From: Bacilli bacterium
Lineage (GTDB): Bacteria; Bacillota_I; Bacilli_A; RF39; UBA660
Assembly (NCBI GenBank): GCA_900772415.1
Contig: CAAHEC010000058.1
Coordinates: forward strand, 4,762 to 68,761
Direction: 5' to 3'
DNA length: 64,000 nt
A model generated the notes under the pieces. That model was not told the origin of the DNA, ran no database searches, and saw only the letters and a list, made by a program, of their open reading frames with translations. Made by a program: the position numbers and the translations under genes. Shown piece after piece: positions 3,415 through 39,988 of the stretch; within the stretch, counting starts at the first letter, position 1, and every line of letters begins with the position of its first letter.

Positions 3415-4812
3415 ATGATAAATATAAAAACAGATTCAAGAAAAGTCAAACCTGGTGATATATTTGTAGCTTTAAGAGGTATAGTAGGGGATGGTCATGA
3501 TTTTATACCTCAAGCAATAAAAAATGGAGCATCTAAGATAATTGCAGAGGAAGGGGAATATAATGTTCCATATCAAATAGTTCCTGATACAAGAGAATAT
3601 CTAAATAATTATTTAAAAGAAAATTATAATAAATATTTAAATAAAATGCATATAATTGGAATTACCGGTACTAATGGTAAAACAACTACTGCATATCTTA
3701 TATATGATGCGTTAAATAAATTAGATAAAAAATGTTGTTACATGGGTACAGTTGGATATTTTAGAGATAAAAAAATATGTGATTTGCCTAATACAACTCC
3801 TGAAGTAACTGAAGTTTATGATATGTTAATAGATGCATATGATTTAGGCTATAAATATGCTGTTATAGAAGCTTCTAGTGAAGGTCTTTTACATAGAAGA
3901 TTAGAGAATGTACCATTTGAATATTCTATATTTACAAATTTAACACAAGATCATTTAAATATTCATGGTACTATGGAAAATTACGCAAGATGTAAACAAA
4001 AATTATTTAATCAAATAAGACCTAATGGTAAGGCAATTATCAATTTTGATGATCCTAATAAAAACCTATTTTTATTTGACTACAATGATAACATAACTTA
4101 TGGATTTACTGGCGGTAATTATCATATAACTGATTATCAAATGAGCATTATGGGAAGTAATTTTACTTTTATATCAGACGGGGTAAAACAAAATATTAAG
4201 GTTCCATTAATTGGTAAATATAATATATATAATGTTTTAGTAACTATAATTGTGTTAAATTATCTTGGTATAACTTATTATGATATTTATGATGTTTTGT
4301 TGAATATAAACATGCCAGCAGGGAGAATGGATATGGTAGAGTACCAAAATAATCGTATTATAGTAGATTATGCTCATACCCCTGATGCTGTTTTAAACGT
4401 AATAAGTACTGTAAAGGAAGTTTGTGAAGGAAAAATTTATACTGTTTTTGGATGTACCGGAGATAGGGATAGGACTAAAAGACCTATTATGACAAAGATA
4501 GTAACTGATTTATGTGATAAAGCAATAATAACATCAGATGATTTACATAATGAAGATCCAAATCAAATTGTAAATGATATGATAAGTGGATTAACAAATT
4601 CTAATTATATTATTGAAATGGATAGGAGAAAGGCTATTATAGAAGGAATTAATCTTCTTAAAACTAATGATGTTTTATTGATTTTGGGAAAAGGACATGA
4701 ACAAGCTATTATAGTAAAAGATAATAAAAGAATTCCGTTTAACGATAAAACTGAAGTTTTAAAATATTTACAAACTAAAAATGTAATTAAAATAGAAAAA
4801 ATAGATGATTAG
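3415..4812 (+). CDS. murE: MurE-family Mur ligase (UDP-MurNAc-L-Ala-D-Glu:amino acid ligase), paralogue 1 with atypical specificity motifs
   Basis: GITGTNGKTTT P-loop, NTTPE, DYAHTPDA, GCTGDRDRTKRP, GKGHE. Has EASSEG and SDDLHNED where canonical MurE has EVSSH and DNPR/DDPR. Confidence 0.85.
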   Translation: MINIKTDSRKVKPGDIFVALRGIVGDGHDFIPQAIKNGASKIIAEEGEYNVPYQIVPDTREYLNNYLKENYNKYLNKMHIIGITGTNGKTTTAYLIYDALNKLDKKCCYMGTVGYFRDKKICDLPNTTPEVTEVYDMLIDAYDLGYKYAVIEASSEGLLHRRLENVPFEYSIFTNLTQDHLNIHGTMENYARCKQKLFNQIRPNGKAIINFDDPNKNLFLFDYNDNITYGFTGGNYHITDYQMSIMGSNFTFISDGVKQNIKVPLIGKYNIYNVLVTIIVLNYLGITYYDIYDVLLNINMPAGRMDMVEYQNNRIIVDYAHTPDAVLNVISTVKEVCEGKIYTVFGCTGDRDRTKRPIMTKIVTDLCDKAIITSDDLHNEDPNQIVNDMISGLTNSNYIIEMDRRKAIIEGINLLKTNDVLLILGKGHEQAIIVKDNKRIPFNDKTEVLKYLQTKNVIKIEKIDD

Positions 4813-4820
4813 GTGATTGT

Positions 4821-5258
4821 ATGGAAGTAGGAAATATTGTCTTTTTAAAAAATATATGTTTTAAAGAAGGCGTAGTAGACCATGCCTTCGATAGAGGAAG
4901 ACCATGTGTTTTTATTGGTGAATTAGATGAAAAAATGTATTTTGTTCCGCTTGCAAGTGTTAAAAATTTAAAATACCGTGACCATTTAAGAGGAATATTA
5001 AAGCCAAATAAAAATAATAATTTAACTAAAATATGTCATACAAATGTAAAAGAATTGATAGAAAAACCAATTGCATTTTATGAAATAAAAGGATATTTAA
5101 ATGATGAAGAATTGTTTAATTTATTTAATGATATTAAGATATATTATTCTACAATTAGAAATGAAAAAAATAGAATAATGGTAATGTTTGCAGATAATTA
5201 TATGAAATCTTTTAAAAAATATGTAGATTATAATAAAAAAATAACAAAAAGAAAGTGA
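4821..5258 (+). CDS. Hypothetical protein with weak PemK/MazF-like (SH3-barrel toxin fold) resemblance
   Basis: By-eye pattern: GNIVFL...RGRPCVFIGE...YFVPLAS...LTKICHTNVKELIEKPI...GYLNDEELFNLFNDIK compared with GDIxxV..G.E..G.RPxxVI...vxPxT...S.i...qirTid..Rl....G.L of the PemK family. No search run. Confidence 0.3.
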   Translation: MEVGNIVFLKNICFKEGVVDHAFDRGRPCVFIGELDEKMYFVPLASVKNLKYRDHLRGILKPNKNNNLTKICHTNVKELIEKPIAFYEIKGYLNDEELFNLFNDIKIYYSTIRNEKNRIMVMFADNYMKSFKKYVDYNKKITKRK

Positions 5259-5276
5259 TTTGACTTTCTTTTTTTA
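5247..5276 (+). terminator. Intrinsic terminator
   Basis: Stem aaagaaagt (5248-5256) / actttcttt (5263-5271) followed by a T-run. Overlaps the TGA stop. Confidence 0.65.
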
Positions 5277-5320
5277 AAATGTTAATATAACTATCAAATA
5301 AAAAAAGGGGTTTATGTAAT

Positions 5321-6175
5321 ATGGCTATAGAAAAAAGTTGTAAACTTGATGATAAAAGTAAAATTAATGAAATCTTTAAAAAATATATGTATTTGGTAGA
5401 AATGTCATTAAATAAGTTTGATTATGATAAACAAGATTATGAAGATTTATTACAAGATGGATACGAACGCTTGATAATATTAATTAAAAAATATATATTA
5501 GGGACATATAAGCATTCATTAAATATCTATTTAAATTATTCACTTAAACATTATTATAAAACACGTATAAAAAAAATGCATAAGGAAGAAGAAAATTTTC
5601 ACTTAAACTATGTTGATAGTAATAAAGATGATTTTATAACTAAATTAGAAGAAAAAGAGTATATAGGTAAGTTAGAAGAGTTTCTTTTTGAAACAAACTA
5701 TCTTACATTTTTGCAAAAAAATATTATTATGGCAAGAATAGGATATATAAATAATATTATGATAGATGATCACGAGCTTGCTTCTGCATTTTCATGCTCA
5801 AGTAGTAACATAAATCATCAATTTAATTGCTGGATGCAAGTAAATTTACCAAGACGTTTTGAACATAGAGTTTCTTTCAAAAATAATTATAGTCATTTTA
5901 CTGATTTATTTTCTTTTTTTGAAACTACAGAAGAAATAGTTAGGTATTTTATTAATGATCTTACTTTAGAAGAAATTATGTTATTAAAAAAAGTATGGGG
6001 CAATAATTATGACAATATAAAGGGTATAAAATATGCAAATATAGGCAAGGAAGAAGTTATAGAATATTATACTGTGATACATAAGTTATATGATAAAATA
6101 ACAAGTTGTGAAGTATTTGATATAATGCGTAAAACCGGAATTGATAGTTTTGAAATACTTAGAAAAACTAGATAA
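5321..6175 (+). CDS. Divergent sigma-70-family-like protein (region 2-like and region 4-like segments)
   Basis: DYEDLLQDGYERLIILIKKY resembles sigma region 2.1/2.2. LTFLQKNIIMARIGY...HELASAFSCSSSNINHQ resembles the region 4 HTH. 284 aa. Confidence 0.4.
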   Translation: MAIEKSCKLDDKSKINEIFKKYMYLVEMSLNKFDYDKQDYEDLLQDGYERLIILIKKYILGTYKHSLNIYLNYSLKHYYKTRIKKMHKEEENFHLNYVDSNKDDFITKLEEKEYIGKLEEFLFETNYLTFLQKNIIMARIGYINNIMIDDHELASAFSCSSSNINHQFNCWMQVNLPRRFEHRVSFKNNYSHFTDLFSFFETTEEIVRYFINDLTLEEIMLLKKVWGNNYDNIKGIKYANIGKEEVIEYYTVIHKLYDKITSCEVFDIMRKTGIDSFEILRKTR

Positions 6176-33322: not shown

Positions 33323-33334
33323 TTACTTGTTTTA

Positions 33335-33557
33335 AAGGCAATGAAGGAAAGAAAAAGGTAAAACTATTAATAAGAGAGTGCATAAATGGTGAAAGTGCGT
33401 AATAGATAATAACTATATAAATGGTTCTGGAGCTTTTTAACTGAATAATTAGGTTAAAGCGGTAGCTACGTTATAGCATAAGAGCATATATATTTATATA
33501 TGAATTAAGGTGGTACCGCGGTTATCAAATCGTCCTTTATTAAAGGATGATTTTTTA
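33335..33557 (+). promoter_or_regulatory. T-box leader (tRNA-Met responsive) with terminator
   Basis: AGAGA plus ggtg elements (33372-33392). Candidate specifier AUG at 33421-33423. T-box aaggtggtaccgcg (33507-33520) with bulge tggU matching A73. Terminator atcgtccttta / taaaggatgat plus T6 (33529-33556). Confidence 0.85.
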
Positions 33558-35209: not shown

Positions 35210-35286
35210 ATTTATTATAATATTTAAATATTTTTATTGAAAGAAAACATTAAAATTAATTTTAATAAATAATAATTGTATATTAA

Positions 35287-35315
35287 TTGTAATATAAAAT
35301 AAATTAGTATATAAT
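35287..35315 (+). promoter_or_regulatory. Putative promoter of the retron transcript
   Basis: ttgtaa (35287-35292), 17-nt spacer, tataat (35310-35315). This places the TSS about 7-10 nt before the left inverted repeat. Confidence 0.55.
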
Positions 35316-35322
35316 AATGGTA

Positions 35323-35487
35323 TGTGCAGGTAGCGTTTGATTTTACTTGTAAAATCTTTTTAGCGAGTCGCTAAAGTAAGAAATTTTAAATATAGACATT
35401 AAACTTATAATGCAGGTGTACTATCATACGTTTCACGTATTTAAATGTACACCTTGCTAATTAAAGTATGTGTTAGTACCTGCATTA
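35323..35487 (+). ncRNA. msr-msd: Retron non-coding RNA (msr-msd) candidate
   Basis: Inverted repeats tgcaggta (35325-35332) / tacctgca (35477-35484). G35333 lies in a TAGCG context right after the left repeat. msr-like hairpins at 35341-35354 and 35359-35375 (tttagcg/cgctaaa). Long msd-like hairpin at 35412-35457 (aggtgtac/gtacacct plus atacg/cgtat). Directly upstream of a retron RT. Confidence 0.65.
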
Positions 35488-35500
35488 AGGAGATGATAAT

Positions 35501-36451
35501 ATGTGGAAGTATTTAACTGAATCTAAATATAATGAACTATTATCATCTTTTAATTTGGTTAATACATCTGATATAAAAAAGATTAATAAAATACTTTATG
35601 GTATCAGTAATAACATAGATTTAAATTATGAAGAGATAATAATTAAAAAGAAAAATAATGGCTTAAGATATTTAAATGAACCTAGTCATATTTTAAAAAG
35701 TATCCAAAAAAGAATTTTAAAAAACGTTTTGGAAGAAAAGATGATATCTAAGAGTGCTTATGCTTATAAAAAGGGATTATCTACCGTTTTAAATGCTAAA
35801 AATCACGTAGGGTGTAAAGTGATTTTAAAATTAGATATAGAAAATTTCTTTGATAATATTAATTTTTACAAGGTATATAATTCTTGCTTTAATGAGAGTT
35901 TATATCCAAAAAAACTAGGTATGCTTTTAACTAATTTATGTGTTTATAATGATAGGCTTCCGCAAGGGTCACCAACTAGTGGTTACATATCTAATATAGT
36001 TCTTAGAAACTTTGATTGTAATATAGATGCATACTGTAAAGATAAAAACATTAATTATACTAGGTATTCTGATGATATGACTTTTTCTGGAGACTTTGAT
36101 ATAAGAAAGTTAATTAAATACGTAAATGAATTGTTATATAAGGAAGGATTTAAACTTAATAAATCCAAAATAAAAGTAGTTTTAAATACCACAAGACAGC
36201 AGGTAACTGGGATAGTTGTTAATGAAAAAATAAATTTAAGCAAGAATTATAAAAGAAAAATCAGGCAGGAAGTATATTACGTATTAAAGTATGGGGTAAA
36301 AAGTCATATTAAAAAAAGAAATATTAATTTATCTTGTAATAAATATTTAAGTGTGCTTCTTGGAAAAATAAATTATGTGTTAACCGTAAATCCAAACGAT
36401 AAAGAATTTATTAATTATAAAAATGAAATTAAACGTATAAAGAATAAATAA
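35501..36451 (+). CDS. ret: Retron-type reverse transcriptase
   Basis: 316 aa. NAxxH (VLNAKNH), LDIENFFDNI, LPQGSPTSGYISN, catalytic YSDD (YTRYSDDMTFSG), retron-specific VTG (RQQVTGIVVNEK). RBS aaggag at 35487-35492. Confidence 0.9.
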   Translation: MWKYLTESKYNELLSSFNLVNTSDIKKINKILYGISNNIDLNYEEIIIKKKNNGLRYLNEPSHILKSIQKRILKNVLEEKMISKSAYAYKKGLSTVLNAKNHVGCKVILKLDIENFFDNINFYKVYNSCFNESLYPKKLGMLLTNLCVYNDRLPQGSPTSGYISNIVLRNFDCNIDAYCKDKNINYTRYSDDMTFSGDFDIRKLIKYVNELLYKEGFKLNKSKIKVVLNTTRQQVTGIVVNEKINLSKNYKRKIRQEVYYVLKYGVKSHIKKRNINLSCNKYLSVLLGKINYVLTVNPNDKEFINYKNEIKRIKNK

Positions 36452-36466
36452 TTTTATTCTTTTTTT
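36441..36466 (+). terminator. Intrinsic terminator closing the retron unit
   Basis: agaataaa (36441-36448) / tttattct (36453-36460) plus T6. Overlaps the RT stop codon. Confidence 0.65.
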
Positions 36467-37868: not shown

Positions 37869-38267
37869 ATGTCGAATTGAGATAAGGAATATTTAAATTT
37901 ATGCAAAAAAATATTAAAGGAAGGAACAGAGGTACAAAATAGAACGGGTATAAATTCTATAAAAGTGCCATCTTATCATTTTCACTTTGATTTAGAAAAA
38001 GAGTTTCCTATTCTTACTACCAAGCAGTTATTTTTAAGACAAGCGGTTCTTGAAATGCTTTGGATATATCAAGCTAAAAGCAATGATGTAAGGTGGCTTA
38101 AAGATCGTGATGTTCATATATGGGATGAATGGGAAATAGGTGAAGATGGTATTTGGAAGGCAACTCAAAATGTTTTAGGTAAAGATGGAAAATTAAAGCA
38201 AAAAGAAGTTGAAAAACATTTGAAAAATAATCCACCATATAAACATATCTTATATAAAAGAAAGTAA
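37869..38267 (+). pseudogene. thyA: Thymidylate synthase (thyA) remnant: in-frame TGA at codon 4 and loss of the C-terminal about two thirds
   Basis: ATG 37869 with RBS ggagg. MSN*DKEYLNLCKKILKEGTEVQNRTG...FPILTTKQLFLRQAVLEMLWIYQ...DVHIWDEWE matches the ThyA N-terminus. TGA at 37878-37880. The ORF stops at 38267 without the catalytic Cys region. Confidence 0.8.
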
Positions 38268-38291
38268 AATTAAACTCTTTTGATATATTAA

Positions 38292-38316
38292 AAAGGACCC
38301 TTTTTGGGTCTTTTAA
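38292..38316. terminator. Bidirectional terminator
   Basis: aaaggaccc (38292-38300) / gggtctttt (38306-38314), loop ttttt. Lies between the thyA remnant and the convergent AAA+ gene. Confidence 0.65.
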
Positions 38317-39284
38317 TAATCATTTAAGTCTACTTTTTCTTTTTCCAAAAAATCTTTAAATTGTATTTTAAAAGCTTCTATTTCTTTTTTTATAACGTCG
38401 GAATATACGCTTTGACAATTAGCAATTGCTTTATAAAAATGTTTAAAAGTAACATATTCACTATTATCAAATTTCGCATAGCTAAACGCCTTAGATAAAA
38501 GTGAAAGTGCATTATCAGGATATCTTGAACCTAATTCATAAATTCTTTTATATTCACTTGTCATATTAACTATGAATTTCATAATGTTTTCTATAACAAA
38601 TTTAGAGTAAGCTAACTTTACGCCAGTTTTCTTTTCTATTCTAGGGTATGACCCCATTAAGATTTTGACGGTAGTTTCTGCGTCTGGTTCAGCAACATCT
38701 ATTTTTTCAAAACGTCTTAGAAAAGCTTTATCTCTTATTAAATACTGATTATATTCATCTAGGGTTGTTGCTCCAATTACCTTTATATCACCACGAGATA
38801 GAGCCGGTTTCATGGCATTAACGAAATCAATACCGCTATTTCTAGATTCAATAACAAGTGTGTGTATTTCATCAATAAAAAGAATTGTATTTTTAGCCTT
38901 TTCTACCTCTTTTAATAAAACATTAATCCTAAGTTCTTCCGTACCATCTTCTGATATACATTTACCAAGTAATTGCGATGTATTGACCTTTATTATGTCA
39001 TATCCTTTAATTGCATTAGGTACCGTATTATTCTGAATTTTATATGCGATTCCTTCTACAATAGCGGTTTTACCAATTCCTGCTTTACCTACTAAGATAG
39101 CGGATTTATCTGGTGTTAAAATAGTTAAAATGGTTTTTTCTATTTCATTATCTCTTGCAATAGCGGGATTAGTAACATATGTTTTAGTTGTTAAGTTTTC
39201 ACCATATTTTTCTAATATACTCATTTTTTCAATGTCATAATTATCATTAAGAGTTAAAGTTTCATAATCTTCCTTGTTATCCAT
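38313..39284 (-). CDS. Stand-alone Clp/Hsp100 D1-type AAA+ ATPase (no N-domain, M-domain or D2)
   Basis: LEKYGENLT...PAIARDNEIEKTILTIL...AILVGKAGIGKTAIVEGIAYKI...ILFIDEIHTLV...KPALSRGDIKVIGATTLDEY...FLRRFEKIDVAEPD is collinear with ClpB/ClpC NBD1. 323 aa. Confidence 0.8.
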   Translation of the reverse strand: MDNKEDYETLTLNDNYDIEKMSILEKYGENLTTKTYVTNPAIARDNEIEKTILTILTPDKSAILVGKAGIGKTAIVEGIAYKIQNNTVPNAIKGYDIIKVNTSQLLGKCISEDGTEELRINVLLKEVEKAKNTILFIDEIHTLVIESRNSGIDFVNAMKPALSRGDIKVIGATTLDEYNQYLIRDKAFLRRFEKIDVAEPDAETTVKILMGSYPRIEKKTGVKLAYSKFVIENIMKFIVNMTSEYKRIYELGSRYPDNALSLLSKAFSYAKFDNSEYVTFKHFYKAIANCQSVYSDVIKKEIEAFKIQFKDFLEKEKVDLNDY

Positions 39285-39409
39285 AGTACATTTCCTTTCT
39301 TCTTATATCTTATCCTTTAATATTATACCAAAAAATAAAATATTTTCGAACTTTTATTTACTTAATTTACATTCTTTGTTATAGTATTATTTATTGGGAG
39401 GTTTTATTT

Positions 39410-39988
39410 ATGAAAAAGGATGAAAACAATAATTTTTATACATATGGTATGATTAAACCGGATGGATTAAGCCATGCAAAAGAAATAATTGATATGATTT
39501 TAGAAGCAGGCCTTGAAGTACAATATATAGAATATGATTTTTTAACTGATGAAATAATATATGAAAATTACTCACACTGTTATGGAAAGGATTTCTATCC
39601 TGGCATGAAAAAACATCTACAAAGTGATTTGGTAATTAAAATGCTTATTTATGATAAAACAGGAAATGCAGTATCTAATTATAGAAAAGTTTTGGGTGCA
39701 ACAAGGCCTTGGGAAGCAGATGAAAATACAATAAGGGGAAGATTTGGAGATAAAAAAATAGGTTATAAAAACGTGGCCCATGGATCTGGTAATGAAAAAG
39801 AGGCTAATGAAGAAATAATTAGATTCTTTAAAAACAATATATCATTAATGTTAAATGAACTTAAGATATATAACGAAAAAGAAACACTTAATAAAGTTAT
39901 AAGTTATATAGATGATAGTTATGTTAAAGAAACAATTGAAGATAGATTAAATAGAGCTAAAAAAATATATTTAAATGGTACTAAGTAA
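39410..39988 (+). CDS. ndk: Nucleoside diphosphate kinase with a ~55-aa C-terminal extension
   Basis: YTYGMIKPDG, LGATRPWEADENTIRGRFG, catalytic His in NVAHGSGNEKEANEEIIRFF. Its stop overlaps the rsmE start (TAATG). Confidence 0.8.
   Translation: MKKDENNNFYTYGMIKPDGLSHAKEIIDMILEAGLEVQYIEYDFLTDEIIYENYSHCYGKDFYPGMKKHLQSDLVIKMLIYDKTGNAVSNYRKVLGATRPWEADENTIRGRFGDKKIGYKNVAHGSGNEKEANEEIIRFFKNNISLMLNELKIYNEKETLNKVISYIDDSYVKETIEDRLNRAKKIYLNGTK

Follow-up and report, generated by a model that had tools for sequence, protein, structure and literature searches.

The accepted model of a retron joins a reverse transcriptase (RT) and a structured noncoding RNA (ncRNA) to a toxic effector, and the orphan retrons are the one large group that stands outside this model. 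In the classification of Mestre et al. (2020; PMC7736814), the branch of the Escherichia coli retron Ec107 comprises 59 RTs that are linked to no protein cluster and count as orphan retrons; it shares a node with RTs linked to a phosphoribosyltransferase (PRTase), and whether the PRTase was lost, a partner acts in trans or a different mechanism operates was left open. RT clade 2 has been reported among the top producers of RT-DNA (Khan 2024; 10.1101/2024.01.25.577267), and Ec107 was not included in the defence assays of Millman et al. (10.1101/2020.06.21.156273). Its expression reportedly increases when phosphate is limiting and in stationary phase (Herzer 1996, cited in PMC6868368). The function of orphan retrons has been an acknowledged question since 2020. 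Here we describe such an element in a 64,000-nucleotide stretch (the window) of contig CAAHEC010000058.1, from an uncultured, spore-forming gut member of the Bacilli whose sequence is very A+T-rich (26% GC).

Positions 35287-36466 of the window hold a promoter, a structured ncRNA of 162 nt with the complementary arms a1 and a2 as its closing stem, a 316-amino-acid RT and a hairpin-plus-T terminator, all on the forward strand. We read this locus as a functional orphan retron of the Ec107 family, standing alone as a promoter-ncRNA-RT-terminator unit, and assign this reading a probability of roughly 0.85. The locus is a further example of a known puzzle and no new kind of system, and it narrows the question of orphan function without answering it. 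What is new is the retron's fixed site between metG and murE across a lineage of uncultured gut Bacilli whose RTs are 62-98% identical to that of the window, and the alternation, inside the window's species, of a 1190-bp retron cassette with a lytic-transglycosylase gene.

Reverse transcriptase and retron RNA

The RT (35501-36451) begins 16 nt after the 8-nt right repeat, and its translation carries LNAKNH (NAxxH), LPQGSPTSG, YSDD and QQVTGIVVN (VTG). When the RT was typed with PADLOC, as a sequence-only reading of the window had proposed, the best model was RT_Ec107-like (E 8.4e-120, 397.7 bits, full length), followed by RT_III-A at 334 bits. Pfam returned RVT_1 only, with no extra domain in the 316 residues, and the NCBIfam retron models scored below their cut-offs. 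The top matches in the PDB were all retron RTs, with Ec86 first (7v9u, E 5.8e-33). The real Ec107 was recovered by blastn of E. coli genomes with the native msd ends, which are contained in published primers (PMC8563936 supplement). It is present in 385 of 5426 complete genomes, and in NZ_CP033401.1 (locus L024) it lies between pyrE and slmA, in agreement with the literature (PMC6868368). The window RT and the Ec107 RT are 42% identical over 307 residues (E 6e-88), nearly their full length, and the Ec107 RT ranks the PADLOC models likewise (RT_Ec107-like 437 bits, RT_III-A 313 bits). The window RT has YSDD, whereas some alleles of its lineage (L007, P0097, P0118 and P0120) have YCDD, as does Ec107 (PMC6868368).

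The ncRNA follows the same plan. A covariance model (CM), described below, matched 35322-35487 with 175 bits as its sole match in the window, and the minimum free energy fold of 35320-35495 consists of an a1/a2 stem, two msr hairpins and a long msd hairpin (dG -44.7 kcal/mol, z -3.2). The inverted repeats tgcaggta (35325-35332) and tacctgca (35477-35484) are lengthened by a G-U pair to a 9-bp duplex between the a1 arm GUGCAGGUA (35324-35332) and the a2 arm UACCUGCAU (35477-35485). G35333 stands directly after a1 in the context UAGCG and, by analogy, is the predicted branching (priming) G; the context a1-UA-G-CGUUU is conserved. The first msr hairpin occupies 35339-35356, and the second (35358-35376) bears a family-wide GCGAGUCGC core. 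The msd, the template of the multicopy single-stranded DNA (msDNA), would extend over 35388-35476, its 5' limit being placed from the map position of the 107-nt Ec107 msDNA, which covers the entire long hairpin of L024. The long msd hairpin of the window spans 35395-35474 with the apex UACGUUUCACGUA, and the complementary DNA strand of the msd folds as well (dG -13.5 kcal/mol, z -3.8). The sequence-only reading had placed the promoter, the 8-nt repeats, the context of G35333, the RT frame and the RT motifs correctly; its msd hairpin (35412-35457) was too short. As the 1.4-kb region contains 185 inverted-repeat pairs, the a1/a2 repeats alone do not exceed chance.

The structure was examined in related loci, numbered with L here, which were gathered from genome contigs, contigs encoding RT homologues and metagenome contigs. 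The region 5' of each RT had a common layout with visible compensating changes: a1/a2 runs from GCAGGUA/UACCUGC through GCAAGUA/UACUUGC to GCAAUA/UAUUGC, and UUAGCGAGUCGCUAA is changed to UUAGGGAGUCCCUAA in L008. The CM was built from 16 gut-lineage ncRNA sequences and a hand-drawn structure. On a plain MAFFT alignment, 1-nt register shifts kept RNAalifold from finding a1/a2 and hairpin 1; realignment to the CM removed these shifts. In the resulting alignment of 18 distinct homologous ncRNAs, 93.9% of cells pair, compared with 81.6% after shuffling and 33-45% with the partners slid; double changes occur in 30 of the 47 pairs against 12.4 in shuffles, a value equalled by none of 500 shuffles. 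All six helices covary. In helix 1 (a1/a2), seven of nine pairs are double-changed and 96% of cells pair; in helix 2 (msr hairpin 1), the sequence varies and the pairing is kept, with six of six pairs double-changed; helix 3 is msr hairpin 2, and helices 4-6 form the msd. In a separate alignment of the ncRNAs, positions A11, G12 and G14 are invariant, and the AG after a1 is fixed. Outside the training set, the CM matched L009 (E 2e-8) and L010 (E 2e-7), and it also matched ncRNAs directly 5' of more distant Firmicute RTs (L109, L106 and L108). These results bear out both the retron identity of the locus and the covariation of repeats and hairpins on which the sequence-only reading had proposed to check it.

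The gut-lineage CM also matches the Ec107 msr-msd exactly (L024 3448-3629, 20.8 bits, E 0.005). Ec107 and the window retron have in common an a1/a2 duplex, a branch G in UAGCGUUU, two msr hairpins, of which the second carries GCGAGUCGC, and one long msd hairpin with the apex UACG...CGUA, which is found in the gut lineage generally. The Ec107 branch context, GGCAAUAGCGUUU, is the same as that of the window, and GCGAGTCGC is found also in E. coli Ec107 and in L105-L110. The family signature can be written as a1 followed by UA-G-C(G/U)UUU and a second msr hairpin with an invariant core. As this signature is common to Proteobacteria and Firmicutes, it points to a conserved recognition surface. The two retrons are alike in habit as well, each being a unit of ~1.2-1.3 kb between housekeeping genes, without mobile-element hallmarks or effector and patchy within its species. 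They differ in host, a Proteobacterium for Ec107 and A+T-rich Bacilli here, in the length of the ncRNA, which is ~20 nt shorter in the window, and in the a1/a2 duplex, which has 11 bp in Ec107.

Because both RT and ncRNA match Ec107, we assign the window retron to the Ec107 (Retron-Eco5; PADLOC PDLC03739 branch) family, clade 2 of Mestre et al. (2020). The placement is drawn from RT profile scores, pairwise identity and our own CM. The undescribed retron type that the sequence-only reading had entertained gives way to a branch that is already in Mestre et al. (PMC7736814) and has its own PADLOC model.

Type III-A retrons combine the RT with a PRTase-like effector and, in some cases, a winged-helix protein, and their RTs are the nearest typed relatives of the window RT. 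Unlike them, the window and the relatives examined have no PRTase or winged-helix gene beside the RT, the rest of the window has none either, and the intergenic gaps are too short for a remnant. Ec86 (Retron-Eco1, type II-A) is the closest RT with a solved structure, and its retron RT fold is alike by sequence. After a1, it has the same branch-G context as the window, UUA-G-CG. However, Ec86 uses an adjacent nucleoside deoxyribosyltransferase-like (NDT) effector, its ncRNA motifs differ, and the RT_II-A model gives only 231 bits on the window RT. A different retron occurs in a related gut bacterium, L011 (5830-7521): PADLOC types its 563-residue RT (37% identity) as an RT-protease fusion of type XI (E 6e-149), and this RT lies 5' of three open reading frames (ORFs) that are candidates for restriction-modification; the ncRNA CM had no match at L011. 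No relative of the window retron was found among viral contigs. The Rfam library contains no retron family, and its sole match in the window was the T-box leader 5' of metG (33332-33540, RF00230, 105 bits), an ordinary one that confirms metG as its own regulated unit.

Conservation of the unit and its alternation with another cassette

The short features of the unit are judged real because relatives conserve them, not by their own statistics. The sigma-70-type promoter TTGTAA-17-TATAAT (35287-35315) has 10 of 12 matches, and the promoter scan gave 13 sites against 15.1 expected from shuffles, so that the promoter alone does not exceed chance. In the RNA fold, the intrinsic terminator (36439-36466) is an A/T stem of 10 bp, overlapping the stop codon of the RT, with a T-run after it; a terminator scan of the region reported nothing, because the stem is without G-C pairs. 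Both scans are uninformative at 26% GC, and conservation across loci was used in their place. A TATAAT box, often TGn-extended, is found 7-12 nt 5' of a1 in all related loci. The ribosome-binding site of the RT, GGAG (35489-35492), was read off the sequence immediately 3' of a2, and related loci of the gut lineage have AGGAGATG or a similar GGAG/GGTG-containing site at the equivalent place. In most loci examined, the RT stop is followed by a hairpin and T-run with unrelated stem sequences, as expected if the terminator is conserved. A conserved leader 5' of murE comes after the terminator. On these conserved signals, the retron is a self-contained transcription unit, as the sequence-only reading had proposed.

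In 17 loci, with identities as low as 46%, the RT frame has its full length. The ratio of non-synonymous to synonymous substitution (dN/dS; Nei-Gojobori) is 0.08-0.15 at dS 0.13-0.44 and ~0.15-0.24 for saturated pairs, values that indicate purifying selection and not decay. GC content at third codon positions (GC3) is 0.186 in the RT, 0.186 in metG and 0.185 in murE; this host-like composition indicates long residence in the host. Some alleles depart from the common form. The RT of L010 (about 1036-1876) has an internal deletion with the ncRNA kept, and that of L038 (238-1181) matches in two frames around residue 122, owing to a frameshift or an assembly error; both are possibly inactivated copies. 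P0057 is a mosaic allele whose N-terminal two thirds are window-like and whose C-terminus is L004-like, and P0111 joins a divergent N-terminal half to a C-terminal half nearly identical to that of the window RT. These mosaics suggest recombination between retron alleles.

Within the window's species, represented by metagenome contigs with metG about 97% and murE about 95% identical, two haplotypes occur. About half of the sampled contigs carry the retron: the window, L001-3, L029, L031, L032, L034 and L038. In L026, L027, L028, L030 and L033, a gene for a 369-amino-acid protein with a transmembrane anchor and an SLT lytic-transglycosylase domain stands in the retron's place, and a check of these five contigs found neither RT nor ncRNA. 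In blastn comparisons with these contigs, homology stops exactly at window positions 35246/36437, which delimit a 1190-bp cassette carrying the retron (35247-36436) and a 1175-bp alternative. The right flank common to both includes the terminator, and the SLT gene is followed by the identical terminator. As SLT gene and retron stand in tandem in the more distant relatives L004, L014 and L023, an ancestral order metG-SLT-retron-murE followed by alternative losses is the simplest history. Its presence in some contigs of one species and absence from others mark the retron as an accessory gene, a property typical among defence genes. Retron and SLT gene each occur without the other and with an intact ORF, and the SLT gene is therefore not required as a partner. 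In L002 and L034, murE is 79% identical to that of the window, whereas the adjoining RT and metG are 96-97% identical, which points to a recombination boundary just 3' of the retron terminator.

Neighbouring genes and competing explanations

In the window, the retron is flanked by metG upstream and murE downstream, with intergenic gaps of ~200 nt and 66 nt. The next gene, which the sequence-only reading had described as a Mur ligase, is specifically murE (NF001126, 420 bits, above the equivalog cut-off). None of the 56 other proteins encoded in the window, products of housekeeping and sporulation genes, matched a PADLOC retron effector model, and a scan of the cassette for further or hidden small ORFs gave none of note. 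No PRTase was matched by PADLOC in the window or among the neighbours of relatives. In the gut lineage, the order is metG, zero to three variable genes, the retron, zero or one small ORF and murE, with exceptions in L005 and L007, which have extra genes after the RT. The variable genes encode the SLT lytic transglycosylase, an AbiQ/ToxN protein, two DUF4176 proteins and a dockerin protein, and include a leuA-like gene. Elsewhere, the RT follows metK (L008), pflA (L009) or ileS (L109), lies between convergent SLH surface-protein genes (L105) or between genes on the opposite strand (L108), adjoins DUF6788-DUF3990-DUF3791 (L106/107), is convergent with tatD (L110) or, in E. coli, lies between pyrE and slmA. 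Across about ten independent contexts, neither a recurring neighbour nor a known effector was found. This agrees with the absence of a recognisable effector noted by the sequence-only reading, which had proposed tabulating the neighbours, and speaks against its thought that close homologues might always carry a canonical effector deleted here. Lack of an associated effector is what sets the orphan branch apart, as a known exception among retrons.

Single neighbours were considered as partners and rejected. A ClpA-like AAA ATPase (38313-39284, reverse strand) belongs to the syntenic core of the lineage and is encoded on the strand opposite to the retron; the other contexts lack it, and its PADLOC matches are weak. 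It is a stand-alone AAA+ protein of 323 residues that corresponds to ClpA/ClpB in the first ATPase domain only (TIGR02639 positions 149-380) and is 87-94% conserved in the close loci L001-L004; the weak matches are to defence ATPases. The DUF3800 protein of L008 lies three genes off and has no PADLOC match, and TatD is near the RT in L110, ~4 kb off in L106 and not at the other loci. Between metG and the retron, L007 carries a ToxN/AbiQ type III toxin gene (4906-5427; Pfam E 9e-49, PADLOC AbiQ E 5e-38), and L004 has an ORF of 99 codons (4104-4403) whose product resembles the C-terminal part of the L007 protein. The metG-retron gap is a minor hotspot where accessory and defence genes collect.

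One rival reading is a tripartite retron particular to this lineage, in which an unrecognised neighbour, either the membrane-anchored SLT protein upstream or MurE downstream, is the effector. In its favour, L004, L005, L014, L017/18 and L023 have a same-strand SLT gene between metG and the retron, and L007 retains a remnant of one; at most loci of the lineage, no more than one small ORF separates the RT from murE. We nevertheless regard this reading as very improbable. The retron occurs without SLT in the window, L001-3, L019, L020, L029 and L034, and an intact SLT gene without retron in the five same-species contigs named above, so that neither needs the other; where both are present, unrelated genes can intervene (the leuA-like gene in L005, two DUF4176 genes in L017), and the SLT proteins have no PADLOC match even at E 0.1. 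The conserved terminator divides the RT from murE, which has its own conserved leader and scores as an ordinary MurE. Neither gene adjoins the Ec107-family RTs of L008, L009, L105-L110 and E. coli.

To a similarly small degree, we credit the view that the locus is a decaying type III-A remnant, which has lost its PRTase/winged-helix effector, has no function and is heading for deletion. RT_III-A models are second-best, a possible loss of the PRTase partner was suggested for the Ec107 branch (PMC7736814), half of the sampled strains are without the retron, and the RT is internally deleted in L010 and apparently frameshifted in L038. However, the low dN/dS of unsaturated comparisons, the full-length frames, the compensatory changes that uphold all six ncRNA helices, the conserved promoter, ribosome-binding site and terminator, and the retention of a single site among RTs 62-98% identical, with GC3 fully like that of the host, do not fit a remnant; of the alternative "orphan or decaying" in the sequence-only reading, the first word stands and the second falls. 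An RT of another class (group II intron maturase, abortive-infection Abi or DRT/UG), with incidental hairpins, is already refuted, with a probability close to nil. The matches in that direction are weak (group_II_RT_mat 63.6 bits, cut-off 300; Drt2 54 bits, cut-off 390), whereas all strong matches are retron RTs and the retron motifs NAxxH and VTG are present; in all relatives, the ORF is preceded at a constant distance by a covarying a1/a2-msr-msd RNA, a homologue of the msr-msd established by experiment for Ec107, and a search of the window with Rfam gave no group II intron RNA.

Predicted mechanism, possible role and setting

For the functional, free-standing Ec107-family retron that we favour, homology to Ec107 allows the steps as far as msDNA synthesis to be proposed with confidence. 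One transcript, starting a few nucleotides 5' of a1, would bear both the ncRNA and the RT frame, and the duplex between a1 and a2 would expose the 2'-OH of G35333. The RT would bind the msr hairpins, chiefly the family-invariant second one, prime on G35333 and, starting at 35476, copy the msd leftwards across the long hairpin to a stop near 35388-35395. Host RNase H would then trim the template to leave a branched msDNA, for which about 80-90 nt are expected by analogy with Ec107, compared with the 107 nt of Ec107 itself and the about 70 nt of the sequence-only reading.

The most likely role, by extension from other retrons, is that of a defence sensor with a non-adjacent partner. The retron would be an accessory, probably anti-phage, msDNA sensor that is independent of any adjacent gene, its partner being encoded elsewhere or being a host protein; taken alone, we hold the chances of a defence role to be about even. 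A more doubtful idea, to which we lend perhaps a quarter of our belief, is that Ec107-family retrons are truly effector-less and that the RT-msDNA complex is itself the working unit, which might act on a host housekeeping protein, as decoy or sensor, or be a nucleic-acid signal linked to starvation. Such a unit would explain purifying selection with no common neighbour from E. coli to small-genome gut Firmicutes, as well as the conservation across phyla of the GCGAGUCGC hairpin and the UACG...CGUA msd apex.

Several considerations weigh against our interpretation of the locus. The CM score on Ec107 is weak, though the position is exactly right. The covariation alignment was fitted to the structure of the model and is biased towards it, a bias lessened by the slid controls and by the matches outside the training set. 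The search for a partner on the host side covered 64 kb of the genome. The defence role is extrapolated from other retron types, the Ec107 family being without known effector or trigger, and the msDNA of this uncultured host is a prediction from sequence.

The retron-plus and retron-minus haplotypes offer a natural contrast within one gut species, in which co-occurrence analysis could reveal a partner encoded elsewhere. That an orphan retron has been kept intact by purifying selection at one site through substantial host divergence argues against leftovers. Unlike the site of Ec107, that of the window retron is common to a whole lineage, and in the window's species the retron alternates there with the SLT cassette. 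Because RT clade 2 is reported to make much RT-DNA, its compact A+T-rich members may also interest builders of retron tools.

The wider setting of the two retrons has one trait in common. Ec107 sits amid the nucleotide-metabolism genes pyrE and dut (L024), and the gut retron lies near thyA/folA, or their remnant, and ndk (window 37965-39988). This resemblance may be a coincidence, and a link between Ec107 and pyrE was already doubted by Mestre et al. (PMC7736814). In the window, a 100-codon ORF (37965-38267) is a thymidylate synthase remnant that covers only positions 30-88 of the Pfam model Thymidylat_synt. An intact thyA-folA pair stands at the equivalent place in L014-L016, and L002 and L034 have nothing there; the window species appears to have lost thyA/folA.

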